Shown here piece by piece: positions 14,384 to 31,085 of a stretch of DNA of 64,000 nt; position 1 is the first letter of the stretch, and each line of letters starts with the position of its first letter. The stretch is from positions 30,817 through 94,816 of the forward strand of contig CBDEUZ010000007.1 in the NCBI GenBank assembly GCA_965243495.1, read 5' to 3'. The stretch is from Dehalococcoidia bacterium. GTDB taxonomy: Bacteria; Chloroflexota; Dehalococcoidia; UBA6926. Below the pieces are notes generated by a model. The model was not told the origin of the DNA. It ran no database searches and saw only the letters and a list, made by a program, of their open reading frames with translations. The position numbers and the translations under genes were made by a program.

Positions 14384-14390
14384 AGGGCAG

Positions 14391-16721
14391 CTATCCCTGC
14401 GCGTCCTGGATGGCGCGCCATACCCGTTCCGGCGTTAGAGGCATCTCAATGTGACTGACGCCAAGGGGCGAAAGCGCGTCAACGACGGCGTTCACAACAG
14501 CGGACGGGGCGCCCGTCGTGGGGCCCTCCCCCATTCCCTTCACTCCCAGCGAGTTCAGTGGAGACGGCGTCTCCGAGAACGCCACGACAAATTCGGGGGT
14601 CATCTCCGCCGTCGGTATCGCGTAGTCCATCAATGAGGCGTTCAGAAGCTGACCGGCCTGATCGTATTCGGAAATCTCGTACAGCGCCTGGCCAATTCCT
14701 TGTGTCGCGCCGCCATGCACCTGCCCCACCACAGTCATTGGATTCACGATGACGCCCTGATCATCAACGGTGTAGAGGCGCTGGAGGTCAACATCGCCGG
14801 TCTCCGTGTCCACATCGACGACGGCGATATACGTTCCAAAGTTGTAGGTCAGGCCGCTGGGTTGGTAGAAGGAGTCCTCATCCAGACCGAATTCCATGTC
14901 TGCCGGGCGCGCGAGCACCTGGAAAGACGCATCCGCCACTTCGGCGAACGAGAATCGGCGCTCCTTGTTCATGGTGCAGATGAATTCCCCGCCCTCCAGC
15001 GACATATGATCGGGTTGGCAACCCATCATGTGGGCGGAGAGTTTCAGCATCTTGTCGCGCACCTTTTCGGCGGCAATCTTGGCGGACATGCCGCCTGTCA
15101 CAAGCGCGCGGCTGCCGTATGTTCCGACACCGTGCGCGACGGTCGCCGTATCGCCATGCAGAACGGTAACGTCATCATCAGAAATGCCGAAAACGTCGGC
15201 GACGATCTGGGCGAAGACAGTCTCGCCGCCCTGCCCGTGCGGGGATGAGCCGGTAAACAGAGTCACCTTGCCACCACGGTTAACGCGTACCCTGCCCCAT
15301 TCGTAGCGGCTGCTGCTGGGATCAAGCGGGCTGGGGCCGGAGCCACCAGTCTTGACCCACGAGGCGACGCCGATTCCCATGTGCCGGCCCTCGGCACGCG
15401 CCTGTCGCTGTTGTTCGCGCAACTGCTGATAGCCGCTGAGTTCCATGACCTGGTCAAGGGAGGCTTCATAATTTCCACTATCAAAGACATCCCCGCCCCC
15501 TGAGCGCATCGGCTGGTCAAACGGCGGGAGATAGTTGCGACGGCGAATCTCGGTGGGATCAAGGCCGAGTTCACTGGCAAGGCGATCCAGTCCGCGTTCA
15601 ATGAGGTGGATGCCCTCCGGCCTGCCCGCGCCGCGGTACGGACCCTGTGGAGTCTTATTCGTGTAGGCATTCTCAGCCTCGAATTCGACGTTTGGAATGT
15701 CGTACACGCCGGTCGAAATCATCGCCGATGAGGCAGAATGTGTCGGTTCCGGTCCCTTGGCGTATGCGCCCAGATCGTGCAGATGCCGTACCCGGAGGCC
15801 GGTTAGCTTGCCATCCGCGTCCGCGGAAACTTCCAGATAGGACGTCTTGCCGCGCGCCTGGTGCATCGCCAGGAAATCCTCAGTGCGCGTGGCAACCCAC
15901 TTAACGGGCACACCAAGATGCATCGACGCAATGCAGAGGAGTGGATATTCGGGATCCTCGTGCTTCACTCCGAAACCGCCGCCAACATCCGGCGCAACCA
16001 CGCGGACGCTGTCCGATGACAGGTGCAGAATCTCGGCGAGATGGTCACGCAGCGCGTGCGGCGTCTGTACCGTCGCCCACAGGCTCATCGTTTCCTGCAC
16101 GGGATCCCAGTGTGCGAGGCCGGCGCGGGGTTCCATCGGCACGCCATGGATCTTCTGGTTCACGATTCGTTCCCGGACGATGACCGCGGCCTCCTCGAAG
16201 GCCTGGGAGACGTTCCCGAGCTGATAGCGCCAGTGGACGATTCCGTTCGGTCGGTCCTCATGGACGCGAGGCGAATCATCTCTTAGCGCCCTCTCAATAT
16301 CTACGACCGCTTCAAGAGGCTCGTAGTCGACAAAGATAAGATCTGCCGCGTCCCGCGCGCCATAACGGGTATCCGCAACGACTACGGCTACAACTTCTCC
16401 AACATGTCGCGCCTTATCGACTGCAATCAGGTCATACGGAGCGGATTCCGCGCTGTAGAACTTCAGTGAGATGGTCGGATTGGTGCCGAATCGCGGGTGA
16501 ATATCTTTTCCCGTCAGTACTGCGGTGACGCCGGGCGTCTGCAGGGCTGCCGATGTGTCGATGCTGCGGATGCGCGCATGCGCGTGCGGGCTGCGGACAA
16601 GGCTTACCCACTGGGTGCCGGGAACCTTGATGTCCTCAACAAATGCGCCACGGCCACGCAGCAGCTTGTCGTCTTCGCGGCGGGCAACCGACTGACCAAC
16701 GAGTTTAGTATCCGTGGCCAT
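14391..16721 (-). CDS. Xanthine-oxidase-family molybdopterin large subunit (CoxL form II-like), copy 2
   Basis: RREDDKLLRGRG, GGGFGVK, PYRGAGRPE, GVKGMGEG; probable start MATDTK at 16721. Confidence 0.92.
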   Translation of the reverse strand: MATDTKLVGQSVARREDDKLLRGRGAFVEDIKVPGTQWVSLVRSPHAHARIRSIDTSAALQTPGVTAVLTGKDIHPRFGTNPTISLKFYSAESAPYDLIAVDKARHVGEVVAVVVADTRYGARDAADLIFVDYEPLEAVVDIERALRDDSPRVHEDRPNGIVHWRYQLGNVSQAFEEAAVIVRERIVNQKIHGVPMEPRAGLAHWDPVQETMSLWATVQTPHALRDHLAEILHLSSDSVRVVAPDVGGGFGVKHEDPEYPLLCIASMHLGVPVKWVATRTEDFLAMHQARGKTSYLEVSADADGKLTGLRVRHLHDLGAYAKGPEPTHSASSAMISTGVYDIPNVEFEAENAYTNKTPQGPYRGAGRPEGIHLIERGLDRLASELGLDPTEIRRRNYLPPFDQPMRSGGGDVFDSGNYEASLDQVMELSGYQQLREQQRQARAEGRHMGIGVASWVKTGGSGPSPLDPSSSRYEWGRVRVNRGGKVTLFTGSSPHGQGGETVFAQIVADVFGISDDDVTVLHGDTATVAHGVGTYGSRALVTGGMSAKIAAEKVRDKMLKLSAHMMGCQPDHMSLEGGEFICTMNKERRFSFAEVADASFQVLARPADMEFGLDEDSFYQPSGLTYNFGTYIAVVDVDTETGDVDLQRLYTVDDQGVIVNPMTVVGQVHGGATQGIGQALYEISEYDQAGQLLNASLMDYAIPTAEMTPEFVVAFSETPSPLNSLGVKGMGEGPTTGAPSAVVNAVVDALSPLGVSHIEMPLTPERVWRAIQDAQG

Positions 16722-16741
16722 GGCTCCGTCCTTTCTCGCGA

Positions 16742-17614
16742 CTATTCCCGGGCGCGCTCCACCGCCTGCGTCAGCGCGCGCCGAGTCAGCACGCGGCACA
16801 GGTTCTGCCGGTACTCCGGCGAGCCGTGCAGGTCTGCAATGCACTCAAGGCCGTCCGCCGCCAGGGCAGACGCTGCTGCGATGGCCTCCGGTGTCGGCAC
16901 CTGTCCTCTCAGCGTGTCTTCGACGGCCGTTGCGCGGGCTGCGCGTGACGCAGCCCCGGTGATGCCGACGGCAACGCGGGACAGATAGCCGCTATCATCC
17001 AGTACAACGTGAGCAGCCACGCCGACGATGGCAAAGTGGGACGCCTTGTTTGCGAATTTGATATACGCCGCGCCAGTGCGTCCTTCCGTGATGGGGATGA
17101 CGATCTCCGTGATGATTTCGTCCTCGGCCAGCGTGCTGATGAACGCGTCCATGATGAGTTCATCAACGGATACGACGCGCACGCCGTTCGGCCCTGCAAC
17201 CTCCGCCTGTGCATCTAGGGCAAGGAGCGTTGCGGGGTAGTCCGCGACGGGGTCGGCGTGGGCGATGCTGCCGCCGATTGTGCCCAGGTTCCGCACTTGA
17301 ACGTCCGCAATCTCCGCAGCCGTTTCAGCAAGCACCGGAAGCGTATCCTGCACCACGTCGGATCCTGCGACGTGGGCGTGGCTCGTCATCGAGCCGATTC
17401 GCAGATTGTTGCCGTCGTTGCTGATATGAGACAACTCGCCGCGCGTCTTGCGCAGATCAACAATGAGGCCGGGCATGGCGACGCGGAGTTTCATCATCGG
17501 CAGGAGACTCTGACCACCCGCGATAACCTTGCCTTCGCCGGGGCGCTCTCTCAACAGGAGGACGGCGGCCGCGACGGTATCTGGCGCTGCATAGTCGAAT
17601 GCTCCGGGAATCAT
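16742..17614 (-). CDS. Mo-hydroxylase FAD-binding medium subunit (CoxM-like)
   Basis: MIPGAFDY, IAGGQSLLPMMKLR, QVRNLGTIGGSIAHADP, GSPEYR. Confidence 0.93.
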   Translation of the reverse strand: MIPGAFDYAAPDTVAAAVLLLRERPGEGKVIAGGQSLLPMMKLRVAMPGLIVDLRKTRGELSHISNDGNNLRIGSMTSHAHVAGSDVVQDTLPVLAETAAEIADVQVRNLGTIGGSIAHADPVADYPATLLALDAQAEVAGPNGVRVVSVDELIMDAFISTLAEDEIITEIVIPITEGRTGAAYIKFANKASHFAIVGVAAHVVLDDSGYLSRVAVGITGAASRAARATAVEDTLRGQVPTPEAIAAASALAADGLECIADLHGSPEYRQNLCRVLTRRALTQAVERARE

Positions 17615-19974
17615 GACTGGTCTCCATTCTGCGCGTCCTGGATGGCGCGCCACACCCGTTCCGGTGTTAGCGGCATCGCGATGTCACGAACGTTGAACGG
17701 CGCGAGCGCGTCAACAACTGCGTTGACCACGGCGGGGGGCGCGCCTGTTGTAGGGCCCTCTCCCATACCCTTCACGCCCAGCGGGTTAGTTGGCGACGGG
17801 GTCTCGATGAATTCAGAGATGAACTCCGGCATCATCTCCGCCGTCGGCAGTGCGTAGTCCATCAGGGACCCGCTAAGCAGCTGGCCGTTCTCGTCGTAGA
17901 TGATGTCCTCATAAAGCGCCTGACCGATTCCCTGCGCTGCGCCGCCGTGAACCTGCCCTTCCACGATGACCGGATGGACGACGACGCCCTGATCATCCAC
18001 GCAGAACAGCTGCTGCAGATCAACGTCGCCCGTTTCCGGGTCTACCTCCACGACGGCCACATACGTGCCGTAGTTGAAGGTGAGATGGGTCGGTTGGTAG
18101 AACGATGACTCGTCCAGCCCCATTTCCATGCCGGGGGGACGTTCCAATACCCGGTTGATGTTGGCGGCAACTTCACGGAAGGTGATGGACGACCCGTTGG
18201 CGCTGAACACGCCGTTCGTGTACGTCACACTGTCCGCATCTGCGCTCAGCGCATGGGCGGCGAATTGCGTCATTTTCTCGAGAATCTTCTGAGAGGCCTG
18301 GAGCACCGCCATTCCGCCCACCACCATGTTGCGGCTGGCGAACGTGCCCGAGCCGTAGGTCACTGTCGCCGTATCACCGTGCGTCACGGAGATATCGTCG
18401 ATCGGGACGTGGAGTGTATCCGCCGCCACCTGGGCGTAAGTGGTGTAGTTGCCCTGCCCGTGTGGCGAGGAGCCGGTGTAGATTGTGACCGCGCCTGCGG
18501 GAGACACTTTCACGCGCGCCCACTCAGGCATGGACGAGGATGGGTCAAGAGAGGACGGGCCAAAACCGCCGGTCTTGACCCACGACGCAAGTCCGATCCC
18601 CAAATATTTCCCGTCTGAACGCATTTCGCGCTGACGCGCCCGCAAACCCTCGTAGTCGCTGACTTCGAGCGCGCGCTCCAGCGCTTCGGGGTAGTGGCCG
18701 CTGTCGTAAATGTCCCCACCGGGGGTGCGGTAGTACGGGAACTCCTCCGGCTGGATCATGTTCCGCCTGCGGATCTCGGCAGGGTCGATGTCAAGATCAC
18801 GCGCCAGCATGTCCATGGCGCGTTCGATCAGGTAGATGCCCTCAGGTCGACCGTACCCACGGTACGCGCCCTCCGGCGTGTGGTTGGTATAGACGGAGTG
18901 GACCTCAAACGAGGCCTCCCGGATACCGTAGACGCCAGTGGCGATGATGGCAGATGTTTGCGCGACGATTGGGGTTGCGCCCTTGGGGAACGCGCCCAGG
19001 TCCGTGGTGTGGCGAAGGCGCAACGCCTTGACACGACCATCACGGTCAGCCGCTACTTCGAACTCGGATGTCTTGCCGCGCGCATGGCTGAGGGAAAGGA
19101 ATTCCTCCGTACGCGAGGCGGCCCACTTGACCGGCAGCCCGAGTTCCATCGAGGCGATGGCAAGGAGGAAGTACTCCACCTCCCCGCCGTGCTTCGCGCC
19201 GAATCCGCCGCCGACATCCGGTGCGACGGAGCGAATCTGATCAGGAGACAGCCCCAGCACCTCCGCCATCTGCGTTCGCAGCTCATGCGCGCCCTGGATA
19301 GACGCCCAGATGGTGAGGAACTGTGTGGCAGGATCCCAGTGGGCGATGCCGGCGCGGGGCTCCATAGGGACGGCGTGAATGCGCTGGTTTACAAAGTCAT
19401 GCCGCAGGATAATCTCCGAGTCCTCAAAGGTGCTGGACACGTTCTCCGTGCTCTTGAGCCAGCGAACCTGCTCATTAGAGCGGTCATCATGCACTTGCGG
19501 CGCATCGGGTTCCATCGCCTGCTCCGGTGTGTTGGCCACCGGCAGCGGCCGGTAGTCGACCATGAGTAGATCAGCAGCATCTCGAGCCGCCTCTCGCGTT
19601 TCCGCAACCACGATGGCGACGATTTCCCCCGCATACTTGGCCTTGCTCCTGGCGATGAGCGTGAACGCGGGCGCGCCGGCCGTGCTGTCAGGGTTCTCCG
19701 CGTCTCGCACAGCGAGAACCGGCGGAATGGGGTTATAGCGGGGGTGGACATCCTCTCCGGTGATAACGCGCAGCACGCCAGGATGAGCCATCGTGGCTGA
19801 GGAGTCGATGCTAAGAATGTGGGCGTGGGCATGCGGGCTGCGGACAAAGTGCGCCCAAACAGTCCCGGGTATGTTGATGTCGTCGGAGAACGCTCCCTGC
19901 CCGCGCAGAAGGCGATCATCCTCCTTGCGCCGTGGCGACTGACCGACCTGGCGAGGCGGGCTGCTTGTGGTCAT
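17611..19974 (-). CDS. Xanthine-oxidase-family molybdopterin large subunit (CoxL form II-like), copy 1
   Basis: RKEDDRLLRGQG, GGGFGAK, AYRGYGRPE, GVKGMGEG; stop overlaps the coxM ATG (ATGA). Confidence 0.92.
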   Translation of the reverse strand: MTTSSPPRQVGQSPRRKEDDRLLRGQGAFSDDINIPGTVWAHFVRSPHAHAHILSIDSSATMAHPGVLRVITGEDVHPRYNPIPPVLAVRDAENPDSTAGAPAFTLIARSKAKYAGEIVAIVVAETREAARDAADLLMVDYRPLPVANTPEQAMEPDAPQVHDDRSNEQVRWLKSTENVSSTFEDSEIILRHDFVNQRIHAVPMEPRAGIAHWDPATQFLTIWASIQGAHELRTQMAEVLGLSPDQIRSVAPDVGGGFGAKHGGEVEYFLLAIASMELGLPVKWAASRTEEFLSLSHARGKTSEFEVAADRDGRVKALRLRHTTDLGAFPKGATPIVAQTSAIIATGVYGIREASFEVHSVYTNHTPEGAYRGYGRPEGIYLIERAMDMLARDLDIDPAEIRRRNMIQPEEFPYYRTPGGDIYDSGHYPEALERALEVSDYEGLRARQREMRSDGKYLGIGLASWVKTGGFGPSSLDPSSSMPEWARVKVSPAGAVTIYTGSSPHGQGNYTTYAQVAADTLHVPIDDISVTHGDTATVTYGSGTFASRNMVVGGMAVLQASQKILEKMTQFAAHALSADADSVTYTNGVFSANGSSITFREVAANINRVLERPPGMEMGLDESSFYQPTHLTFNYGTYVAVVEVDPETGDVDLQQLFCVDDQGVVVHPVIVEGQVHGGAAQGIGQALYEDIIYDENGQLLSGSLMDYALPTAEMMPEFISEFIETPSPTNPLGVKGMGEGPTTGAPPAVVNAVVDALAPFNVRDIAMPLTPERVWRAIQDAQNGDQS

Positions 19975-19984
19975 GGCACTCACC

Positions 19985-20464
19985 TCACCTGGAGAGTTGT
20001 TCCGCCGCGAATTCAATCGCGAGGACGATGTTTTGGTATCCCGTGCATCGGCACATGTTGCCTGCAAGCGCGTGGCGGATCTCGTCGCGGCTCGGATTCG
20101 GGTTCTCGTTGAGGAGTGCCTTGGACATCATCAACATGCCGGGCGTGCAGAATCCACATTGAAGGCCGTGCTTCTCCGCGAACGCCTGTTGAATTGGGTG
20201 CAACGTCCCGTCCGCGTGAGCAAGCCCCTCCACGGTCTCGATCTGCTGGCCGTCCGCCTGCGCGGCGAGCATGGAGCATGATTTGACCGCTTCTCCATTG
20301 AGCAGAACGGTGCATGAGCCGCACTGGGACGTATCACAGCCGACATGCGTTCCGGTCAGGCCGATGACATCCCGGATGGCGTGGACAAGCAGTAAGCGTG
20401 GTTCAACCTCTATGGAATGCTCGGAATTGTTGACGGTTAGCGTGATTGACACTGATTCAGCCAT
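19985..20464 (-). CDS. Mo-hydroxylase 2x[2Fe-2S] small subunit (CoxS-like)
   Basis: GCDTSQCGSCTV, KSC, QCGFCTPG, NMCRCTGY motifs. Confidence 0.95.
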   Translation of the reverse strand: MAESVSITLTVNNSEHSIEVEPRLLLVHAIRDVIGLTGTHVGCDTSQCGSCTVLLNGEAVKSCSMLAAQADGQQIETVEGLAHADGTLHPIQQAFAEKHGLQCGFCTPGMLMMSKALLNENPNPSRDEIRHALAGNMCRCTGYQNIVLAIEFAAEQLSR

Positions 20465-20543
20465 AGCGCGGTAAGTCTCCCCTCCTAATCGCACCTGTGG
20501 CGATGCTATTCCCACGCGGCGCGGGCGGTCAACACTTGACCGT

Positions 20544-20987
20544 CTATTGAGACGCGGCGGCCTCCCGCGAGAGGGCATCAAAGAACTGCCCCATCAGCAT
20601 CCGTACCGCGGTCTGGATCATGCGCGAGCCGATCTGCGCCAGCGTTCCACCCACCTGGGCGTCCGCCTCAACTTCAACGAGAGTGCTGTCGCCGTCCTCG
20701 GTGAGGTTGATCTTCCCCTCGCCTGACACAAAGCCCGTCGGCCCCTGACCGCTCAAGGTCATCTTGTAAGTCTCCGGCACGGCCACATCCTCGATTTCAA
20801 CCGAGCCGCTGAACCGTCCCCTTATTGGCCCAACGCCTACGGCCAATGTCGCGGAGAATTTTTGGGGCGTTTCAGCGTCCAGCGACTGACATCCCGGCAC
20901 CATTCTTTGCAGGGCATCCGGGTCATGCAGCAGTTCCCACACGCGCTCACGCGAAGCGGGGACAGTGTGGCTGCCGGTGATGTTCAT
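20544..20987 (-). CDS. CoxG/SRPBCC-family accessory protein
   Basis: VWELLHDPDAL...PGC and GGTLAQIGSRMI patterns; adjacent to coxS. Confidence 0.88.
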   Translation of the reverse strand: MNITGSHTVPASRERVWELLHDPDALQRMVPGCQSLDAETPQKFSATLAVGVGPIRGRFSGSVEIEDVAVPETYKMTLSGQGPTGFVSGEGKINLTEDGDSTLVEVEADAQVGGTLAQIGSRMIQTAVRMLMGQFFDALSREAAASQ

Positions 20988-20992
20988 GCGGG

Positions 20993-21985
20993 TTAGTCGG
21001 CCCGCCCCGCGACGGGAGTAGCCGGACGCGGGGGTTCAATGGCCACGCGCATTCCCTCTTCAAGCTGGCCGCGTATATCGTTGATGCTGTTGAGGCGGTG
21101 CGTCTCCACGTAGGTGTTCAGGCCCTCAATGACATCCAGCATCGTTGTGGGGCGAGTGAAATTGGCAGTGCCGACAGCAATGGCCGTCGCACCCGCCAGG
21201 ATGAACTCCAACGCATCTTTGGTGGACGTGATACCGCCGATGCCGACGACGGGCAGCGACACTGCGGCGCACACCTGCCACACCATTCGGACGGCGATGG
21301 GACGGATGGCAGGGCCGGAAACACCGCCGGTCATGGTACCCGTAACGGTTCGGTGGTTATCCACGTCAATGACCATGCCGGACAGCGTGTTGATGGCTGA
21401 AATGGCCGTCGCGCCGCCCTGCTCGGATGCCTGCGCGATGTCTGCGATGTTGGTGATGTTGGGGGTGAGCTTGGCGATGACAGGGCCATCGAAACGGTCG
21501 GACACGCCGCGCACCACTCGTTCGACATTGGCCGGGCTCGCGCCGATCTCCATGCCGCCCGCCTCAAGGTTGGGACATGAGATGTTGACCTCAAGTCCCG
21601 CGACGCCCGACTCGCCGTTCAGACGTTCGGCAAGTCGGTCGTATTCCTCGATCCCCAACCCGCCAATGCTCACGATGACGGGTGAATCATACTTCGTGTA
21701 CTCGGGCAAGAGTTCGGTCAGGAAATTCTCGACACCGCGCGACGGGATGCCGATGGAGTTGAGCATTCCGGCGGGGGATTCGGCGGTGCGGGGGGCGGGA
21801 TTGCCCGCCCGTTCGCCGTAAAAGATGGTCTTGGGAACGAGCGCGCCGAGTTGGCCGAGGTCGAACAGGGTTCCCATCTCCGGCCCGAAACAGCCGGATG
21901 CAGGCATGACCGGGTTCTTGAGGGTCAGCCCGGCTCCGAGGTCAACCCCTAGCCTGCTATCGGTCTCAGTATCCTGTACGGCCAT
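20993..21985 (-). CDS. pyrD: Dihydroorotate dehydrogenase class 1B catalytic subunit (or paralog)
   Basis: LKNPVMPASG, GNPAPR, GMLNSIG, EVNISCPN (catalytic Cys), KLTPN, GGVSGPAIRP. Confidence 0.9.
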   Translation of the reverse strand: MAVQDTETDSRLGVDLGAGLTLKNPVMPASGCFGPEMGTLFDLGQLGALVPKTIFYGERAGNPAPRTAESPAGMLNSIGIPSRGVENFLTELLPEYTKYDSPVIVSIGGLGIEEYDRLAERLNGESGVAGLEVNISCPNLEAGGMEIGASPANVERVVRGVSDRFDGPVIAKLTPNITNIADIAQASEQGGATAISAINTLSGMVIDVDNHRTVTGTMTGGVSGPAIRPIAVRMVWQVCAAVSLPVVGIGGITSTKDALEFILAGATAIAVGTANFTRPTTMLDVIEGLNTYVETHRLNSINDIRGQLEEGMRVAIEPPRPATPVAGRAD

Positions 21986-21988
21986 CCC

Positions 21989-22906
21989 CTATACAGTAAC
22001 GCCTGCCGGGTGGCAGCGAAAGACGGGGCCGTCGCGGCACACCAGCGGCGACTCCGCCGACTCTCCAAACGCGCCCGTCGCGCAGGAATGACAGTAGCCC
22101 AGTCCGCAGGCCATGTGGGCCTCGAGGGAGACATAGGTCTCAACGTCAGCGGGAGCTGCAAGCCGGGTTGTCAACTCGATCAGGCGGTTGGAACCGCAGA
22201 CGTACGCCTGCTGCACGCGGCCCGACTCGATGATCTCGCTGATCCACGGCTCCACGTTCCTGACATCACTGCTACCGTCCGCGTCATCGACATAGAGGGC
22301 GTTGCCACGCGCCTTCTTGATGATGTCTTTCCCGAGCACAACGTCCTTGTTGCGCGCGCTGAACACAGCGTAGACCTCGGTGTTTTGCTGTCGTGCTGCG
22401 TCGATTAGCGTCGTCAATGAGCAGACACCTATCCCGCGTCCAACAATCAGGATGCCGTTGGCATCGTCAGCAATCGGGAAGGGCCGGCCAACTGGACCGA
22501 CAATTTCAACAATATCTCCCGCCCTGCGTTGGGCCATGGCAGCCGTGCCATACCCCACAACGCGGTAGACGAAGTCGGCAGTCCCTGCAGCCTTGTCATA
22601 GCGGTACACGGCCATGGGACGCGGAAGGATGGGGTGGACATCGGTGGCCGCGCCGGGTCGAATGACGCCGAACTGCCCCGGCTCGCCGTTCGCCAGTGCC
22701 TCGGAGCGCACGCGCATCAGATAGTGTTCCGGCGCAATCTCGTCGTTGGAAATAATCTCGGTTTCAACGAACGTCGCGGCGGGCGCTTGATGGCCGTTCG
22801 TCTGCATCACTTCAAGCCGCACGCTGGAGGGCAGACGGAGTTGCGGGACATGCGTGCCCGCAAAAACGGGAATCGTCCCGTTGGCGTCCATGAGTTCTGA
22901 TGTCAT
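21989..22906 (-). CDS. pyrK: Dihydroorotate dehydrogenase electron-transfer subunit (FAD, [2Fe-2S])
   Basis: PGQF, LPRPMAV, GPVG, SLEAHMACGLGYCHSC...VCRDGPVF. Confidence 0.88.
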   Translation of the reverse strand: MTSELMDANGTIPVFAGTHVPQLRLPSSVRLEVMQTNGHQAPAATFVETEIISNDEIAPEHYLMRVRSEALANGEPGQFGVIRPGAATDVHPILPRPMAVYRYDKAAGTADFVYRVVGYGTAAMAQRRAGDIVEIVGPVGRPFPIADDANGILIVGRGIGVCSLTTLIDAARQQNTEVYAVFSARNKDVVLGKDIIKKARGNALYVDDADGSSDVRNVEPWISEIIESGRVQQAYVCGSNRLIELTTRLAAPADVETYVSLEAHMACGLGYCHSCATGAFGESAESPLVCRDGPVFRCHPAGVTV

Positions 22907-24237
22907 TCGGCAACCTCTTTCGTCAGGAAAGTATCGATGTCCCGGATGCTCTCCCCGAGCGCCCGCGCTCCGATGGTGATGTCATCCATACTCGTCCACT
23001 CCTCCGGGCAGTGGCTGAGACCATCGCGGCTGGGCACGAAGAGCATTGCGGTGGGAATAGCGCGCGAGAGGATGCCGGCATCATGACCTGCCCCGCTCGT
23101 TGTCACACGGTGCGGAACATCAAGGCGGTCTGTGGCTGCAGTCGTCAGATCACGCAGCCACTTGGGCAGCACCACGGGCGACGTATCGGACACAACCTCC
23201 CACTCGCACCGCAGACCTCTTCGCGCGGCTGTTTCCTCTGCGCGGGAGACGATGTCCCGCGTCGTCAGGCGCTGACGGTCGCTGTCCACGTCGCGCACAT
23301 CAAGATAGAACTCTACGTCGCCGGGAATGGTGGTGATGCTGTTGGGAAAGACGTGCAGGCGTCCAACCGTGGCAACGGTGGCGCGACGGCGCGGCTCGTT
23401 GGCAATGGATTCCGCGGCAAGGATGACCTCGGCGGCGGCGGCCAGGGCGTCACGACGCTGCGACATGGGCGTGCCGCCGGAGTGGTCCTGCCGGCCCTTT
23501 ATCGCAAGACGGATTCGGGTGTTCCCGGCAATGGCGTCGACAAGACCAATGCGTTCTCCGCCCTCTTCCAACGATCGTGCCTGCTCAATGTGCAGTTCCA
23601 GGAACGCGGCGAGAGTGTTGGGCGCCCATCGGGCCTGCGCCAGGGCAAGCGGATCGAAATTCGCGGCTCTCATGGCTTGCGCCAGCGTGATACCGTTCGC
23701 GTCCCGGAGCCGTTCCATATCCGCGTCTTGCAGTACGCCGGCGATGGCCTTACTGCCTAAGCATGGCTCGCCGAATCGCGCGCCCTCCTCAGAGGCAAAG
23801 GCGACCACCATGAGAGGGTGGGTCGTCTTGATGTCCGCCTCAGCGAACATGCGGATGACTTCCAATGCGGTAAGCACGCCGATGGCGCCGTCGAATCGTC
23901 CGCCGTGCGGCACGGAGTCTAGGTGCGAGCCGAAGCCAATGGCGGGGCGCGCAGGGTCGGTTCCGGCGAGCGTTCCGATCGTGTTGCCGAAACTGTCCGT
24001 ACGGACGGAGAGGCCCATGTCTACCATCCATCCCGAGACAAGTTCATGGGCGGCGCGTTCTTCCTGCGAGAAGGGAATGCGAGAGACGCCGCCTCCCGGC
24101 TCCGCGCCTATCGCGGAGAGGAGTTCAAAGTCGGCGGAGATACGGCCGGGATCGGCGCGCAACTCGGCAGCAACGGCCTCGGCTTCCTCCGCCACGTCCG
24201 TCGATTCCGCGTTCCGTTCCTGCTCAGTCGTTGCCAT
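22903..24237 (-). CDS. M20 Zn-dependent N-carbamoyl-amino-acid hydrolase (allantoate amidohydrolase/beta-ureidopropionase family)
   Basis: GSHLDSVPHGGRFDG, FASEEGARF, ELHIEQ, DHSGGTPM, SGAGHDA, SHCPEEW. Confidence 0.92.
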   Translation of the reverse strand: MATTEQERNAESTDVAEEAEAVAAELRADPGRISADFELLSAIGAEPGGGVSRIPFSQEERAAHELVSGWMVDMGLSVRTDSFGNTIGTLAGTDPARPAIGFGSHLDSVPHGGRFDGAIGVLTALEVIRMFAEADIKTTHPLMVVAFASEEGARFGEPCLGSKAIAGVLQDADMERLRDANGITLAQAMRAANFDPLALAQARWAPNTLAAFLELHIEQARSLEEGGERIGLVDAIAGNTRIRLAIKGRQDHSGGTPMSQRRDALAAAAEVILAAESIANEPRRRATVATVGRLHVFPNSITTIPGDVEFYLDVRDVDSDRQRLTTRDIVSRAEETAARRGLRCEWEVVSDTSPVVLPKWLRDLTTAATDRLDVPHRVTTSGAGHDAGILSRAIPTAMLFVPSRDGLSHCPEEWTSMDDITIGARALGESIRDIDTFLTKEVAE

Positions 24238-24715
24238 CAGTTCCTGCCTCTATCGTCACAAGGGAAAGCTCCCCTGCGATCGCCCCCACCCCAACCAGAG
24301 ACGCGGTGACCGCCAGCCTGCCGCCTCTGTTCTCGACGAATGCTCTTGCGAGATTGGCATCGCGTTCGCTCAGTGTCACGCCGATGAGGGCGACTTCCTG
24401 ACCCGCCTCAACGTTGCCGGAAGCCGTAACAAGCCCCTCTGCGTCAGACAGCAGGACGACGGGTTTGTCTGCCTGCACACCGACGGCGAACGCCAGAACG
24501 ATGTTGCCCAGCCCCGGCCACGCGGCGATGATATCAGGCGCGGGGGACGGCAGCGCCTCCGAGAGGCATTCGGCCAGTTCGGAGACGGCCGTGGGGTTGG
24601 CCAGCGGCTCCATAGCCCCGGCAACTAAAGCGCTTTGCCCGTCAGCGTCCTCGGCTTGCCCTTCAATAAGGCAGCCGGTGGACTTCAATAGGTTGACTAT
24701 CTGCGATTCATTCAT
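24224..24715 (-). CDS. Degenerate orotate-phosphoribosyltransferase-like protein
   Basis: Colinear with OPRT (LLKSTGCLIEG; LANP..VSELA; PDIIAAWPGLGNIVLA; GQEVALI; RGG) but lacks the EDVxTTG PRPP motif. Confidence 0.65.
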   Translation of the reverse strand: MNESQIVNLLKSTGCLIEGQAEDADGQSALVAGAMEPLANPTAVSELAECLSEALPSPAPDIIAAWPGLGNIVLAFAVGVQADKPVVLLSDAEGLVTASGNVEAGQEVALIGVTLSERDANLARAFVENRGGRLAVTASLVGVGAIAGELSLVTIEAGTDGND

Positions 24716-24716
24716 T

Positions 24717-24892
24717 TGAATACTGTAGCGCGTTTATCGGACTACTTGTATCAACGTCCGATTGTACATGGGAAGCGTGTTGTGACGTTGACTCGTTAAG
24801 CGCGCTACCTGTTGTCACGTCGATTCGTTTTAGAGCTACTTGTTGCCATGCTGATTCGTTCTTAGGTCTAGGTGTTGTGACGTTGAAAAGTA
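24717..24892. repeat. Imperfect tandem array, 31/32-bp period, about 5 units
   Basis: Units at 24779 GTTGTGACGTTGACTCGTT, 24811 GTTGTCACGTCGATTCGTT, 24842 GTTGCCATGCTGATTCGTT, 24874 GTTGTGACGTTGAA; degenerate units at 24748 and 24717. Confidence 0.8.
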
Positions 24893-25450
24893 CTAGATGC
24901 CGAGGTCGCTCCGCCTGAACAGGGCGCGGAGTTGGTAGCCCGCGGCGGCAAGATACTGCTGCGCCCCCTCCTCACGATCAATCACGACCAGCACATCGGA
25001 AACGGTCGCGCCGGCGGCTCTGAGGGCGATACCCGCCTCGATGGCCTGGCTGCCCGTCGTCACCACGTCCTCCACAAGCAGGACGCGCTCGCCCGCAAAG
25101 AGTTCACCCTCCACAACGTTGCCCGTCGCGTATGATTTTTGCTCTTTCTTGACGATCACGAACGGCAGGCCCATCTCGAGGGAGAGGGCGGTTGCTAGGG
25201 CCACCGCGCCGAGCTCCGGGCCGGCGATGCGATCCGTGCCGGGCGGGACAAGCTCTGCCATGAACGCCGCCAAACGGCGCAGGATGCTGGGCTTGGTCTC
25301 AAAGAGGTACTTGTCGAAATAGTAGTTGCTGGTGCGGCCGGAGCGGAGAACAAAGCTGCCGCGCAGATAGGCGGCGCTGAGCAGATCACGGCCAAGCTCC
25401 GTAATGCGCTGCTCACGCGACAGGCCAATCGACCGGCTCAAAGTCGCCAT
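24893..25450 (-). CDS. pyrE: Orotate phosphoribosyltransferase
   Basis: FVLRSGRTSNYYFDK, GPELGAV, VLLVEDVVTTGSQ, VIDREEG. Confidence 0.92.
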   Translation of the reverse strand: MATLSRSIGLSREQRITELGRDLLSAAYLRGSFVLRSGRTSNYYFDKYLFETKPSILRRLAAFMAELVPPGTDRIAGPELGAVALATALSLEMGLPFVIVKKEQKSYATGNVVEGELFAGERVLLVEDVVTTGSQAIEAGIALRAAGATVSDVLVVIDREEGAQQYLAAAGYQLRALFRRSDLGI

Positions 25451-25595
25451 GTGTGGGTCTCCTTCCCGCGCTGCTTATCCCAATTGCACCATCGGCATCC
25501 CGTTAATGGTACTAGATTCGCCAAGCGGCGCCCGTGCGGGCGTGGGCGCTACAATAACGATTGATTAAGTTGGGGCACTCAAGGAGCTCGCGCCA

Positions 25596-26579: not shown

Positions 26580-26670
26580 TTCACTTGGTTGATGGGTAGC
26601 GTGCGCGACCAGCCGCTACAATAGCGAATGATTGACCGGCCGCATTTGAGGGACTGGGGAGTTTTCGTTC

Positions 26671-27657
26671 ATGCACATCGATACGCACAATCATTTCGCC
26701 GTTCCTGAATACATCAACCTTCTGCTGAATCGAAAAACGTTCCCCTATATGGAACGCAGCGGCGATGACATCCTCTTCCACGTCAGCAACATGGATACCT
26801 ACACCATGCCCGCCGGCATGTTCCGGTTGGAGACGCGTGTCGATGACATGGACGAGGCGGGTGTAGACATGCACGTGATGAGCTGCATTGTTCCCGCAGG
26901 CGAGGTGGCGGATGATCCCGTGCTGAACGTGGAGCTTGCGGCGGCGGCGAACGAGGGCATCGCGCAGATTCAGAAGGACAGCCCGGATCGATTCGTGGGA
27001 ATGGGAACGCTGCCGCTGCTCAACCCGGACGCGGCAGTCAAGGAGCTGGATCGCGCTGTGAATGACCTTGGTCTGGGCAGCATGATGCTCACCTCGAACG
27101 TGGCGGGCAAGCAGCTGCATGAAGAGGATCTTTGGCCTGTCTATGAGCGGGCGGAGGAGTTAGGTGTCGTGATGATGATCCACCCCAGCTGGCCCGTGAT
27201 GGCTCACCACATGGAGGGCTGGACAATGGCCGTCAATATGGGGTTCCTCTTTGACTCATCAACCGCCATGATGCGCATCATCCTCAGCGGTGTCATGGAG
27301 AAGTACCCGAACCTGCAGTTCGTCCTGTGCCACCTCGGCAGCACCCTGCCCTTCCTCATGGGGCGGCTGAATCGCACCGGAGGCCCCCGCGCCGGCCACT
27401 GGGGCGAAAACGACAAGGGCCCCTGGGAGTATTTCAAGAAGGTCCATATTGACACCGTTTCGCGACTCAGGCCGGCCATCATGTTCGCCCGCGAGCTGAT
27501 GGGCAACGACATGATCATGTTCGGAACAGACTATCCGTACACGACGATCCCGCCGATGAAGGCCGACGTGACGGAGCTTGATCTGCCTGAGGACGATCGG
27601 GCTGCGATTCTGGGCGGCAACGCGGCGCGGCTGTTTGGGATTGAGGAACGCGGGTAA
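26671..27657 (+). CDS. Amidohydrolase_2 family protein (ACMSD/uracil-5-carboxylate decarboxylase-like)
   Basis: IDTHNH, MMIHP, CHLG, MFGTDYPY, ILGGNA..LF. Confidence 0.88.
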   Translation: MHIDTHNHFAVPEYINLLLNRKTFPYMERSGDDILFHVSNMDTYTMPAGMFRLETRVDDMDEAGVDMHVMSCIVPAGEVADDPVLNVELAAAANEGIAQIQKDSPDRFVGMGTLPLLNPDAAVKELDRAVNDLGLGSMMLTSNVAGKQLHEEDLWPVYERAEELGVVMMIHPSWPVMAHHMEGWTMAVNMGFLFDSSTAMMRIILSGVMEKYPNLQFVLCHLGSTLPFLMGRLNRTGGPRAGHWGENDKGPWEYFKKVHIDTVSRLRPAIMFARELMGNDMIMFGTDYPYTTIPPMKADVTELDLPEDDRAAILGGNAARLFGIEERG

Positions 27658-27661
27658 CAGG

Positions 27662-29005
27662 GTGGCCAGCAAGCCGACAATTGCTATCGTGCCGACGGGC
27701 GGCACGATTCAGAACGGGCTGCCGTTTGTGACATCGAGCAAGGCGGGCGGGCCGCTCAACGTACTGCGCGCTCAGCGACTGCATGAGCCGGTCACGGTAC
27801 GGATTCGTCGCGAGGATCGTGACGGCAACCCGGTGGGCGACGGCGACGGTGAGTTCCATGAGGTGACGCTGACGCCGGAGGACGGCCTCTATCTCCTGCC
27901 TTACATGGAGCCCGGGCATGAGCCTCCGCAGACGTATTCTCAGTTCCATCTGACCGCCAAGCGCGTCATTGAGGAGATTGACCGTTTCAGCGTGGACACG
28001 AACGGGCGTAACGGACTGCTGTCCGACGTTGCGGATCTGCGCGTGGAGATGGTCATAGATCCGGACACTGGCGGCGAGCTGCGGCGCGGCGGCGAGACAT
28101 TTGGAATGCGTGAGCTGGTTCTCATCTCCAATACAGTCAACGAAGCAATCTCGCGGCCAGACGTGGATGCCTGCATCGTCACGCACGGAACGTTCACGAC
28201 GGAAGAGACGGCCGCTTTCCTTAACTACACCGTCAACTCGCACAAGCCGGTCGTCGTAGCGGCTTCGCAGCGCAGGCACGGCAGCGTCGGGAATGACGGC
28301 GACTGGAATCTCTGGGACGCCGTGCGCGTGGCGGCGTCGCCGGAGGCCGTGGGCAAGGGCGTGGTGGTTGTGCTGGACGAGCAGATGTTTCCGGCGCGTG
28401 AGGTGACCAAGACGAACCAGAGGCCAGGAGGGTTCGCGTCGCTGGGCGGTTCCGCGTCTGCCATTGGCTCCATCGAGGCCGACCAAGTGTCCTTCTATTT
28501 CGCGCCGACACGGCTCCACACGGCGGAGTCGCGCGTGCGAGGCGAGGGCCCCCTGCCGTTGGCCTTACCCACCGTGGACATCGTGAAGACGTACGCCGGC
28601 GCGGACGACGTACAGGTTCGGGCGCTGATAGACCGCGCCGTTTCTGAACGCGAGGCGGACGCAGCCCATCCCGGCCACGGCATCGTCGTTGAAGGATTTG
28701 CCTATAGCGGCGTGCCCCATCGATTCCAGCGGCCTGCGCTTGAAGAGGCTGTCCGGAAACACGGCATGCCTGTCGTCCTGACGAGTCGAGGACTGCGCGG
28801 GCGGATTCCCAAGGAGCCGACGCAGGACACGTTCATCACGGGGGACAACCTCTCGGGAGTCAAGGCACGGCTGCTGCTGACCCTCGCGATTCGGACGCTG
28901 GGGCCGTTGACACCGTTCGCGGATACGGATAACCCGACGCCGCAGGAACGCGAGCTTCTACTGGCCGAGATCGGGCGGTACCAGGAGATATTTGACACGC
29001 ACTAA
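27662..29005 (+). CDS. Asparaginase/glutaminase-family amidohydrolase, atypical
   Basis: PTGGTI, VTHGTFTTEETA, AREVTKTN, NLSGVKARLLL; long insert after TGGT; GTG start 4 nt after the amidohydrolase stop. Confidence 0.8.
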   Translation: MASKPTIAIVPTGGTIQNGLPFVTSSKAGGPLNVLRAQRLHEPVTVRIRREDRDGNPVGDGDGEFHEVTLTPEDGLYLLPYMEPGHEPPQTYSQFHLTAKRVIEEIDRFSVDTNGRNGLLSDVADLRVEMVIDPDTGGELRRGGETFGMRELVLISNTVNEAISRPDVDACIVTHGTFTTEETAAFLNYTVNSHKPVVVAASQRRHGSVGNDGDWNLWDAVRVAASPEAVGKGVVVVLDEQMFPAREVTKTNQRPGGFASLGGSASAIGSIEADQVSFYFAPTRLHTAESRVRGEGPLPLALPTVDIVKTYAGADDVQVRALIDRAVSEREADAAHPGHGIVVEGFAYSGVPHRFQRPALEEAVRKHGMPVVLTSRGLRGRIPKEPTQDTFITGDNLSGVKARLLLTLAIRTLGPLTPFADTDNPTPQERELLLAEIGRYQEIFDTH

Positions 29006-30759: not shown

Positions 30760-30846
30760 GCCGAGGTGGCGGAACGGCAGACGCGCTGCGTTCAGGGCGC
30801 AGTGCCCCTAGCGGGCGTGAGAGTTCAAATCTCTCCCTCGGCACCA
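30760..30846 (+). tRNA. tRNA-Leu(CAG)
   Basis: Acceptor GCCGAGG/CCTCGGC, anticodon stem CTGCG-TTCAGGG-CGCAG, long variable arm, encoded CCA. Confidence 0.97.
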
Positions 30847-30892
30847 CACGACAGTCTGGGCAAATGTGGCCGAAGACGGCCATGAGTGACAC

Positions 30893-30970
30893 GCGCTTGT
30901 AGCTCAGTCTGGATAGAGCGCAGCCCTGCGGAGGCTGAGGCCGTGGGTTCGAGTCCCGCCAAGCGCGCCA
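30893..30970 (+). tRNA. tRNA-Arg(GCG)
   Basis: Acceptor GCGCTTG/CAAGCGC, anticodon stem CAGCC-CTGCGGA-GGCTG, TTCGAGT loop, encoded CCA. Confidence 0.95.
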
Positions 30971-31011
30971 CTTTCTCTCTCGTCAGTGCTATGGAGTACC
31001 CTGAGACGTGA

Positions 31012-31085
31012 GGGCGGCTAGCTCAGCTGGTTAGAGCGTCTGCTTTACACGCAGAAGGCCGGGGGTTCGAGCCCCTCGCCGCCCA
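31012..31085 (+). tRNA. tRNA-Val(TAC)
   Basis: Acceptor GGGCGGC/GCCGCCC, anticodon stem TCTGC-TTTACAC-GCAGA; CCA not fully encoded (ACCC). Confidence 0.96.

Follow-up and report, generated by a model that had tools for sequence, protein, structure and literature searches.

The window (the whole stretch of 64,000 nucleotides that was analysed) contains a row of ten co-oriented genes on the minus strand, running pyrE, X, M20, pyrK, pyrD, coxG, coxS, coxL1, coxM and coxL2. They are listed here in that order, with the repeats located between pyrE and X and two conserved neighbours on the plus strand.

24893..25450, minus strand: pyrE, orotate phosphoribosyltransferase, at the head of the module and its best-conserved gene (TIGR00336, 134 bits, cut-off 106.8)
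24772..24892, no strand: four tandem 31-32-nt repeats, inside the pyrE-X spacer
24224..24715, minus strand: X, probable degenerate type I phosphoribosyltransferase-fold protein (pseudo-OPRT), 163 aa (predicted fold)
22903..24237, minus strand: M20 hydantoinase/carbamoylase-family amidase (TIGR01879, 408 bits; NF006771, 448 bits, above 399)
21989..22906, minus strand: pyrK-type electron-transfer subunit, FAD and [2Fe-2S] (PF10418)
20993..21985, minus strand: pyrD, class 1B dihydroorotate dehydrogenase catalytic subunit (NF005574, 366 bits, above 269)
20544..20987, minus strand: coxG-family SRPBCC protein (PF06240, E 1.4e-26)
19985..20464, minus strand: coxS, 2x[2Fe-2S] small subunit, xanthine-oxidase family (PF01799 and PF00111)
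17611..19974, minus strand: coxL1, Mo-cofactor large subunit, loop AYRGYGR (PF01315, PF02738, PF20256)
16742..17614, minus strand: coxM, FAD subunit (PF00941 and PF03450)
14391..16721, minus strand: coxL2, Mo-cofactor large subunit, loop PYRGAGR, form II-like (annotation and loop)
26671..27657, plus strand: Amidohydro_2 decarboxylase (ACMSD/LigW/IDCase family), divergent from pyrE, conserved neighbour (PDB matches)
27578..29005, plus strand: type II asparaginase-like gene, conserved neighbour (TIGR00520, 161.9 bits, under cut-off; the true start is probably later)

With start codons picked by ribosome-binding site and homologues (coxS, for example, starts at ATG 20464 with GGAG upstream), the overlaps are 14 bp between X and M20 and 4 bp between M20 and pyrK, and the junctions that follow are +3 (pyrK/pyrD), +5 (pyrD/coxG), +79 (coxG/coxS), about +10 (coxS/coxL1), -4 (coxL1/coxM) and +20 bp (coxM/coxL2). 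The preliminary description had set out nine of these genes with pyrE upstream; all ten are found, with order and gaps as claimed (-14 to +79 bp), and the identities it gave are confirmed by profiles and, for the 'pseudo-OPRT' X, by a model of the fold. The pyrE-X spacer is 177 bp, and holds three copies of the motif TGTTGTSACGTYGA against 0.11 expected; the motif was found in none of 108 related loci. The genome is compact, and gaps of 3-15 bp also separate convergent and unrelated genes (e.g. 9810/9817 and 14383/14391), so that short gaps alone do not prove a single operon. No pyrB, pyrC, pyrF or further cox genes occur among the called genes of the window, as seen with a profile set without pyrB and pyrF and library annotation covering 10-30 kb.

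The encoded proteins

The PRPP motif of PyrE (VLLVEDVVTTG) is intact. X has no sequence match in Pfam, NCBIfam or the PDB, and its AlphaFold (AF2) model (pLDDT 84) fits the APRT and OPRT folds with TM scores of 0.65-0.75. The sequence VALIGVTLSER takes the place of the PRPP loop; on this model X would be a dead phosphoribosyltransferase, with the fold but lacking the PRPP site. The family comprises about 100 clusters at 50% identity, and between lineages its sequences are only 25-41% identical.

The best solved relative of M20 is the L-carbamoylase 3N5F (E 1.7e-95), and it retains what we take to be the metal- and carboxylate-binding motifs of that enzyme. The models that it passes are at subfamily level only, and are named for allantoate amidohydrolase or hydantoinase/carbamoylase. 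PyrK has the cysteine pattern C267-x4-C272-x2-C275-x14-C290 and falls under the NCBIfam equivalog cut-offs (129.8 vs 219). PyrD most resembles Lactococcus lactis PyrDB (1EP1, E 1e-68) among solved structures, and retains the NISCPN, MLNSIG and INT motifs and the conserved lysine; from its sequence it is evidently a canonical class 1B dihydroorotate dehydrogenase, with the predicted active site of a strict orotate enzyme.

CoxL1 and CoxL2 are 56% identical, and the catalytic GEG motifs of both are intact. Assignment of either as a CO dehydrogenase was rejected, as the loops AYRGYGR and PYRGAGR lack the signature of that enzyme. The products of coxS, coxL1, coxM and coxL2 are predicted to form a hydroxylase or dehydrogenase of the xanthine-oxidase family. 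The Amidohydro_2 decarboxylase finds LigW (6e-40), ACMSD (5e-34) and IDCase (8e-22) in the PDB.

Conservation of the gene row

The row is common to 21 Dehalococcoidia species, over which PyrE is 93-99% identical, compared with 74-79% for YchF. CoxL1 is confined to the shallower part of this clade, being absent from five species (L001, L002, L020, L021 and L023), and coxL2 is the large subunit retained by every member whose locus reaches that far. The decarboxylase is 86-99% identical over the clade and also lies beside pyrE in L024, L029 and L036; the asparaginase-like gene is kept in most of the 21 species, and is missing from L001, L002, L020 and L021.

The first three genes extend much further, into many unrelated soil and sediment contigs. 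X was present in at least 36 of 63 loci of PyrE relatives with enough sequence, directly following a pyrE-type phosphoribosyltransferase in all contexts read (from called genes in 8 loci and from profiles in at least 36 metagenome loci), and M20 was present in all 28 X-positive loci with enough sequence. In about half of the loci the triad continues into pyrK-pyrD; outside the clade this five-gene order occurs free of cox genes in L024, L025, L027, L033, L039, L040, L043 and L066, and the triad stands alone in L026, L028, L031, L061 and others. For 22 of the 120 best PyrD matches the longest contig was equal in size to that of one of the 120 best M20 matches. Thus pyrE-X-M20 is an invariant core, so far undescribed, that is often followed by pyrK-pyrD. 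The proposed link of M20 to pyrK-pyrD is real and deeply conserved, whereas pyrE, which had been placed outside the unit, proves to be its most conserved and invariant member.

The synteny does not extend to the cox array. The coxS/M/L genes follow pyrD in the clade of the window only, and were found in none of eight clusters outside it having pyrD and downstream sequence. Even within the clade an extra gene lies before or within the cox row in four of the 21 species; in L010 pyrD and coxG are separated by a 954-aa gene on the same strand, and in L006, L011 and L014 a gene of 676-698 aa on the opposite strand separates coxG from coxS. The locus extends as far as coxG in 19 of the 21 species; in each of these coxG lies next to pyrD or, in L010, after the inserted gene. 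CoxG-like genes are also found beside the triad in the soil loci L043 and L084, in neither of which were coxS/M/L seen. The row is best explained as two adjoining units, a putative orotate-node module (pyrE, X, M20, pyrK, pyrD and perhaps coxG) and coxS/coxL1/coxM/coxL2, the latter of which became a neighbour in a single Dehalococcoidia lineage associated with sponges and corals.

The genes around related clusters suggest uptake and catabolism rather than biosynthesis. Among 16 triad loci Amidohydro_1 was found in 10 neighbouring proteins and ABC transporter parts in 6-8, and none of pyrB, pyrF and carAB/CPSase was among the 25 most frequent neighbour families. Regulators of IclR, MarR and GntR/FCD type are tightly packed in the same operons with ABC uptake systems. 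L027 is a tight operon of IclR, the phosphoribosyltransferase, X, M20, pyrK, pyrD, a Liv-type ABC transporter and a dihydroorotase/allantoinase-like amidohydrolase; L025 has the same gene set, and its cyclic amidohydrolase passes the pyrC_multi domain model (288 vs 279). An asparaginase and an aspartate-oxidase-like flavoprotein lie beside the triad in L095, aminotransferases lie near it in L044 and L048, and a weaker asparaginase profile match adjoins an X-less pyrE in L107. In the clade of the window, neither a dihydroorotase-type amidohydrolase nor a transporter lies close to the cluster.

A possible orotate-node module and its alternatives

These surroundings fit a route from orotate through dihydroorotate and N-carbamoyl-aspartate to aspartate, and we tentatively favour (with a probability of roughly 0.4) a module that would split orotate between nucleotide salvage and this breakdown. 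PyrE would convert orotate to OMP in salvage or biosynthesis. With surplus orotate, dihydroorotate or carbamoyl-aspartate, NADH-linked PyrKD would run as an orotate reductase; reduction of orotate is favourable, the potential of the orotate/dihydroorotate couple being above that of NAD+/NADH. The ring might be opened by a dihydroorotase encoded elsewhere in the genome, or in several relatives by the cyclic amidohydrolase of the cluster. From its family and context we propose that M20 is an N-carbamoyl-L-aspartate amidohydrolase, whose release of aspartate, CO2 and NH3 would pull the reversible steps forward. As a guess, X might serve PyrE or M20 as a non-catalytic partner or as a sensor of a ligand.

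The best-surviving alternative, which we consider unlikely though deserving of weight, is an operon for the late steps of pyrimidine biosynthesis (pyrE, pyrK, pyrD and sometimes pyrC) with accessory X and M20 and unrelated cox neighbours. X might then be a regulatory subunit of the OPRT. M20 would serve homeostasis or repair, for instance by draining carbamoyl-aspartate present in excess or by clearing the N-carbamoyl amino acids to which carbamoyl phosphate or cyanate gives rise. PyrD and PyrE pass their respective models, pyrE is the best conserved of the genes at the locus, the L025 amidohydrolase passes the pyrC_multi model, and duplicate pyr genes are unlikely in a genome of only about 1.9 Mb. 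In the tree, the PyrE sequences from triad loci are mixed with housekeeping copies, e.g. that of L108 (S1, pyrE, pyrF). Because PyrE and PyrD thus look ordinary and biosynthetic they may be the only copies, in which case a co-expressed ureidosuccinase would risk a futile cycle with ATCase, and this counts against the orotate-node reading. Their ordinary appearance speaks against a dedicated catabolic paralogue, and not against dual use. Against a biosynthetic operon stand the missing pyrB, pyrF and carAB, the catabolic-type regulators and uptake systems, and the presence of a carbamoylase, for which we know of no biosynthetic role.

In roughly half of the triad loci pyrK-pyrD is missing, with a COG0402-type amidohydrolase in its place in some, so the triad may handle something other than carbamoyl-aspartate. 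This could be a 5-substituted hydantoin, an allantoate-like compound or another N-carbamoyl-L-amino acid, with pyrE a mere genomic anchor. The loci without pyrKD contain COG0402-type or hydantoinase-type amidohydrolases, a hydantoin-racemase-like gene and NMT1-type and PnrA-type binding proteins (the COG0402-type enzyme occurs in L028, L031 and L033), and the subfamily-level matches of M20 would allow such substrates. We regard this as improbable; X itself has a PyrE-derived fold and never occurs away from pyrE in the loci read, a second orotate enzyme, PyrKD, follows in half of them, and a mere anchor would not keep translational coupling across the divergence seen in X.

Least probable is the single pathway of the preliminary description, in which CoxSLML would make an orotate-like dioxo acid by hydroxylating a pyrimidine or pyridine, such as a pyrimidine-carboxylate or isonicotinate (giving citrazinate), for reduction by PyrKD and decarbamoylation of the opened ring by M20: the 5 bp pyrD-coxG gap, the order kept in 21 species, the GEG motifs and loops expected of N-heterocycle or aldehyde hydroxylases, the adjacent ACMSD-type decarboxylase and the precedent of nicotinate fermentation (Mo hydroxylase, then reductase, then amidohydrolase) are in its favour, but it lacks support outside the clade, within which the array is interrupted in four species, closely spaced genes are usual in this genome even where unrelated, the PyrD active site makes an 'orotate-like' substrate unnecessary, and we know of no natural compound that Mo-hydroxylation would plausibly turn into orotate. 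The catabolic reading is in part supported by the surroundings of the relatives; its Mo-hydroxylase step is not supported.

Comparison with known systems

X may be compared by analogy with HisZ, a non-catalytic protein encoded directly beside an active phosphoribosyltransferase, HisG. HisZ descends from a tRNA synthetase, whereas X would share descent of the fold with its putative partner. The Cox proteins share S/M/L subunits, CoxG and loops of the kind (A/P)YRG(A/Y)GR with form II CoxL-type enzymes (quinoline 2-oxidoreductase, 6-hydroxypseudooxynicotine dehydrogenase and archaeal glyceraldehyde oxidoreductase), and among solved structures they are closest to CoxL, Qor and Kdh; they differ in having two L subunits for one S and one M, and in missing every NCBIfam equivalog cut-off.

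The Bacillus-type pyr operon (pyrR-P-B-C-AA-AB-K-D-F-E) likewise has adjacent pyrK-pyrD near pyrE, with canonical sequences. In contrast to it, the present cluster has no pyrB, pyrC, pyrF, carAB or pyrR nearby, M20 and the pseudo-phosphoribosyltransferase are inserted with translational coupling, and relatives have transporters and catabolic-type regulators.

The hydantoinase/carbamoylase systems, and ErtD (hydantoin-5-propionate amidohydrolase) and ErtE (N-carbamyl-L-glutamate amidohydrolase) of ergothioneine breakdown, follow the same logic of a cyclic amidase and then an L-carbamoylase giving an acidic L-amino acid. Against the ErtE model (equivalog cut-off 520) M20 reaches 397-416 bits, and the L025 amidohydrolase reaches 318 against that of ErtD (equivalog cut-off 650), both below threshold; there are no ergothionase or thiourocanate genes, and the pairing is with orotate enzymes.

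In the reductive fermentation by Clostridium oroticum (Lieberman and Kornberg) orotate is degraded by dihydroorotate dehydrogenase B (orotate reductase), dihydroorotase and ureidosuccinase (EC 3.5.1.7). To our knowledge no gene has been assigned to ureidosuccinase, hence there is no sequence for comparison. The cluster of the window differs in lacking a dihydroorotase, in having the OPRT and pseudo-phosphoribosyltransferase as integral members, and in its host, an aerobic-type marine Dehalococcoidia and not a fermenter. The two systems have in common class 1B PyrD/PyrK, an amidohydrolase family able to act on N-carbamoyl-L-amino acids and aspartate as the predicted end product, with neighbours acting on aspartate or asparagine in related loci.

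The gene row and its surroundings

The genes pyrE, X, M20, pyrK, pyrD, coxG, coxS, coxL1, coxM and coxL2 form a single row on the minus strand, arranged as in the preliminary description. X denotes the 163-aa degenerate phosphoribosyltransferase-fold protein (pseudo-OPRT), M20 is the amidase of the hydantoinase/carbamoylase family, and pyrE–X–M20 is termed the triad. The features of this region of the window are as follows.

14391–25450, minus strand: the row of ten genes, pyrE to coxL2
24224–24715, minus strand: X
24772–24892: four tandem repeats of 31–32 nt in the pyrE–X spacer
25451–26670: insertion of ~1.2 kb between pyrE and the decarboxylase gene
25596–26579: open reading frame of the insertion
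26671–27657, plus strand: decarboxylase gene of the ACMSD/LigW/IDCase family, divergent from pyrE
27578–29005, plus strand: asparaginase-like gene
30760–31085, plus strand: three tRNA genes in a row

Start codons were set from ribosome-binding sites and homologues before the junctions were measured. The junctions are −14, −4, +3, +5, +79, about +10, −4 and +20 bp, and pyrE lies upstream of X across a spacer of 177 bp. The genome is very compact, with gaps of 3–15 bp even between convergent, unrelated genes, and because unrelated genes are equally close the tight spacing is weak evidence for a single operon. Scans for promoters and terminators gave signal at background level. Rfam contains no riboswitch or attenuator that matches within the window; its only matches there are the three tRNAs (51–69 bits), which lie downstream of the PGI gene. 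In the window, neither pyrB, pyrC and pyrF, whose absence was remarked upon in the preliminary description, nor carAB was detected in the ~10 kb around the cluster.

Two local peculiarities flank pyrE. The repeats of the pyrE–X spacer have the core TGTTGTSACGTYGA, with three exact matches observed against 0.11 expected. None of 108 related loci has them, and most of those loci have a spacer of only ~15–100 bp. The repeats may have expanded in this strain specifically, or may serve as an operator array. On the other side of pyrE, the reading frame of the insertion has a weak trypsin/DegP-like match (E 1.7e-10), and over about two-thirds of its length it has an 87% identical match, found in a single locus of the clade (L004). 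The interval between pyrE and the decarboxylase gene is ~150–230 bp in most relatives, and several others have insertions of other lengths.

Conservation within and outside the clade

When one genome was scanned for each GTDB species, 21 loci emerged, all from Dehalococcoidia MAGs with chromosomes of 1.6–2.4 Mb; isolate names such as APA_bin and Plut suggest that some come from sponges or corals. Loci of this clade are numbered L001–L023, and out-clade and metagenome loci from L024 upwards. X follows pyrE in all 21 loci and M20 comes next in all 20 that reach beyond X, with pyrK, pyrD, coxG, coxS, coxM and coxL following in every locus long enough to show them. Only one coxL, in the order G-S-M-L, is present in the deeper members (L001, L002, L020, L021 and L023), so that coxL1 is a later insertion. 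The cox row is interrupted or preceded by other genes in 4 of the 21 species. In L010 a same-strand gene of 954 aa lies between pyrD and coxG (13736–16597), and in L006 (14167–16260), L011 and L014 (14170–16197) an opposite-strand gene for a putative membrane protein of 676–698 aa lies between coxG and coxS; L006 has an additional gene of 474 aa. The decarboxylase beside pyrE is 86–99% identical in the clade, above PyrD. It also adjoins pyrE in L024, L029 and L036, and may be a member of the module.

The decisive comparison is the synteny outside the clade. The next-closest M20 proteins (52–63% identity) come from other Chloroflexota and from soil contigs. L024 has an Amidohydro_2 gene, then in divergent orientation pyrE, X, M20, pyrK and pyrD, and then unrelated genes. 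L025 has pyrE, X, M20, pyrK and pyrD followed by a Liv-type ABC transporter and a 462-aa cyclic amidohydrolase, which passes the pyrC_multi model and comes close to passing the one for allantoinase. L026 has only pyrE, X and M20. Further contexts come from the wider X family. L027 is a tight operon of IclR, PRT, X, M20, pyrK, pyrD, ABC transporter, cyclic amidohydrolase and PrpD-like genes. In L028, MarR, PRT, X and M20 are joined by an amidohydrolase of COG0402 type and an ABC transporter of NMT1 type, and a JGI contig has a similar set.

The X-family alignments are too divergent for metagenome scans, so the PyrE alignment was used instead. The 80 metagenome loci around relatives of the window PyrE were labelled by profiles, with GC3-filtered gene calls for the high-GC loci. 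X is present in at least 36 of the 63 PyrE-relative loci with room for it, M20 in all 28 X-positive loci with room, and pyrK–pyrD continue in half of those with at least 3.8 kb downstream (6/12). Pairing by longest-contig size, which is a proxy for co-location only, links 22 of the 120 best PyrD matches to one of the 120 best M20 matches. The coxS/M/L array is absent from all eight out-clade loci having pyrD and downstream sequence, and the only trace of the array there is a divergent coxL fragment alongside L035. The preliminary description had placed the molybdenum hydroxylases in one pathway and operon with PyrDK and M20. The row and its gene links are real; a pathway shared with the molybdenum enzymes is not supported, and the conserved part is the triad.

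CoxG requires separate mention. CoxG-family (SRPBCC) genes adjoin the pyrE cluster in two soil contigs, L043 (5309–5803) and L084 (6719–7123), with no coxS/M/L on the part of either contig that was read. In the window's clade coxG remains with pyrD even where coxS-L-M-L is separated. Thus coxG may be part of the pyr unit, and not of the molybdenum enzyme.

The proteins of the row

PyrE passes the pyrE model (TIGR00336, 134 bits against a cut-off of 106.8) with its PRPP-binding loop VLLVEDVVTTG intact. Across the clade PyrE is 93–99% identical, compared with 49–91% for X and 74–79% for the adjoining universal GTPase YchF. PGI is 67–89% identical among those species of L001–L023 where PyrE is 93–99%. 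For an OPRT this constraint is unusually strong, as might be expected if PyrE had an obligate protein partner, for which X is a candidate. In a quick neighbour-joining tree of the 180-residue PyrE, triad-linked sequences interleave with those from loci lacking X, and a triad-dedicated paralogue was rejected on this basis; one such X-less gene, in L108, sits in a housekeeping context between ribosomal protein S1 and pyrF.

X has no sequence match in Pfam, NCBIfam or PDB, and none to the Pribosyltran family of Pfam even at E 10, and was identified by fold search only. Its AlphaFold model (pLDDT 84) has the Rossmann-like PRT fold, with Foldseek matches to adenine and orotate phosphoribosyltransferases at a probability of 1.00 and TM of 0.65–0.75. 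The PRPP motif (four hydrophobic residues, two acidic residues and a TTG-type phosphate loop) is missing: at this position members of the clade read VALIGVTLSER, and more distant ones LV(T/A)D(A)xR. The name pseudo-OPRT is a fair one. Only 28 close relatives were found in a collection of 5.8 billion proteins. A profile compared with 1.84 billion representatives gave ~100 clusters of 165–190 aa, several with a C-terminal CPxC. This family, which forms ~100 clusters at 50% identity and lacks a Pfam model, would give a core nucleotide enzyme a new kind of partner, a pseudo-enzyme.

M20 passes its family model (TIGR01879, 408 bits against 204), and among solved structures it is closest to the L-N-carbamoylase 3N5F (E 1.7e-95). 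The motifs GSHLDSV, FDG, SEEGARF, ELHIEQ, RDV and GHD align with that structure, and presumably contain the catalytic Glu, the ligands of the two metals and the Arg that binds the carboxylate. The score against the model of ErtE, an N-carbamoyl-L-glutamate amidohydrolase, is close to, yet below, the cut-off. Hydrolysis of N-carbamoyl-L-aspartate has been known as a reaction since the 1950s. We know of no reference or assigned sequence for ureidosuccinase (EC 3.5.1.7), and none turned up in the literature; if M20 is an N-carbamoyl-L-aspartate amidohydrolase, a reaction without an assigned sequence would gain its gene.

PyrD is a class 1B dihydroorotate dehydrogenase by its catalytic Cys in NISCPN, its orotate-binding residues and its FMN barrel motifs. 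In the alignment with Lactococcus lactis PyrDB 1EP1 (E 1e-68), NISCPN, MLNSIG, INT and Lys are kept; judging from DHOD structures, the motifs beyond NISCPN contain the Asn and Lys residues that bind orotate. It scores above the NCBIfam DHOD equivalog (NF005574, 366 bits against 269). Assignment as a dihydropyrimidine dehydrogenase was rejected (PreA model, 160 against a cut-off of 335). PyrK, encoded 3 bp from pyrD, is an FAD/[2Fe-2S] subunit with the PF10418 domain and the C-terminal C-x4-C-x2-C-x14-C motif ([2Fe-2S]) of the class 1B partner, and with 129.8 against 219 it misses the equivalog cut-offs that NCBIfam sets for PyrK.

The cox genes encode the subunits of a xanthine-oxidase-family enzyme, with Pfam domains for 2x[2Fe-2S] (S), FAD (M) and MoCo (L). 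CoxL1 and CoxL2 are 56% identical, with the active-site loops AYRGYGR and PYRGAGR, and GVKGMGEG with the catalytic Glu in both. Neither is an aerobic CO dehydrogenase: the AYxCSFR of form I CoxL with its Cu-binding Cys is absent, and TIGR02416 gives them 613 and 599, where its cut-off is 991. Both fall below every NCBIfam equivalog cut-off, the nearest solved relatives being CoxL, quinoline 2-oxidoreductase and 6-hydroxypseudooxynicotine dehydrogenase. CoxL genes beside the module should not be annotated as CO dehydrogenases.

A proposed role in the fate of orotate

We read the row tentatively, with a probability of about 0.4, as two units: an orotate-node module (pyrE, X, M20, pyrK and pyrD) and a cox neighbour. 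PyrE would convert orotate to OMP. For surplus orotate and its reduced forms, NADH-linked PyrKD would reduce orotate, a dihydroorotase would open the ring, and M20 would hydrolyse N-carbamoyl-L-aspartate to aspartate, rendering the sequence irreversible. X would most simply be a non-catalytic partner or ligand sensor, and the cox genes a lineage-specific neighbour. Reduction of orotate is thermodynamically favoured, and Clostridium oroticum runs the reaction in this direction. Exogenous orotate should raise UTP and CTP, which would shut down ATCase, so that a futile cycle could be avoided. The substrate of M20, the direction of flux and the role of X are what we infer here. Up to 10 kb from the cluster, neither the window nor its clade has a dihydroorotase or other ring-opening amidohydrolase, and no transporter is nearby in the clade. 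Such an amidohydrolase is present in the cluster of L025, L027 and L060 and upstream of pyrE in L066, with a weaker match after pyrK in L087.

Less likely, though the strongest competitor, is the reading as a biosynthetic operon for the late steps that carries two accessory genes. In its favour, PyrE and PyrD are canonical and highly conserved, and the genome is small; against it, the neighbours of the triad are catabolic. Among 112 neighbour proteins of 16 triad loci, Pfam finds Amidohydro_1 in 10 proteins and ABC transporter parts in 6–8, with Peripla_BP_6, MarR, Amidase, DUF1989, a hydantoin-racemase-like family and aminotransferases in fewer. Aspartate carbamoyltransferase, OMP decarboxylase and carbamoyl-phosphate synthetase are absent from the 25 most frequent neighbour families, and the co-location with pyrB, pyrC, pyrF or carAB that marks a biosynthetic pyr operon was not found. 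Single loci add a PnrA-type nucleoside-binding protein (L060), an asparaginase with an aspartate-oxidase-like flavoprotein (L095), and a GntR/FCD regulator with an aminotransferase and a second M20 (L048). These families and single-locus genes point to uptake and catabolism ending in aspartate, not to biosynthesis.

An asparaginase-like gene adjoins the pyrE cluster in the window, in its clade and in L095 (2376–3320), and a weaker asparaginase match lies beside an X-less pyrE (L107, 4750–5595). With the flavoprotein of L095, these neighbours hint at aspartate or asparagine as the metabolic exit. Glycine reductase genes (Gly_reductase and GRDB) lie <8 kb from the triad in two unrelated loci, L001 (1110–3471) and a JGI contig, which may be coincidence.

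The triad might instead act on a different ureido or hydantoin substrate, as loci without pyrKD that carry other amidohydrolases would allow; we consider this improbable. A second arrangement lacks X: in L103 (7647–10922) another M20 peptidase, one that has a dimerisation domain, precedes pyrE and then Amidohydro_1, and in L093 the confirmed part is pyrE then Amidohydro_1. Thus pyrE recurs beside amidohydrolases outside the X family too. Slightly less probable again is the full scheme of the preliminary description, with molybdenum hydroxylases feeding PyrDK and M20, since adjacency within the clade is its only basis. An anaerobic-type purine route, with a ureidoimidazole carboxylate amidohydrolase and decarboxylase, was considered as a possible reading; PyrD and PyrE are clearly orotate enzymes.

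Under the orotate-node reading, it is the pyrE/pseudo-PRT/carbamoylase unit, with pyrKD present about half of the time, that probably decides what becomes of orotate. The interest lies in this unit, and not in the molybdenum enzymes. A bolder version, which we think has little chance of being right, makes the triad a widespread and so far unrecognised system in which a dead OPRT paralogue couples OPRT to ureidosuccinase, long an orphan activity, and so decides between salvaging orotate and burning it to aspartate; sponge-associated Dehalococcoidia would have recruited a two-CoxL molybdenum hydroxylase and the ACMSD-type decarboxylase to funnel in a host-derived N-heterocycle. Should the reading of M20 be true, uncultured Chloroflexota and soil bacteria would provide a documented case of a reversible 'orotate node'. 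Among them are abundant symbionts of sponges and corals whose genomes measure ~1.9 Mb, and which could draw nitrogen from pyrimidine intermediates supplied by the host. For annotation, pyrD and pyrK of this module are not simple biosynthetic markers.

The conserved unit is apparently undescribed so far: full-text literature searches gave no description of this cluster, an absence that is not proof. An analogous idea, a 'reaction module' of DHOD, amidohydrolase and carbamoylase, has been put forward for purines only (PMC4016543).
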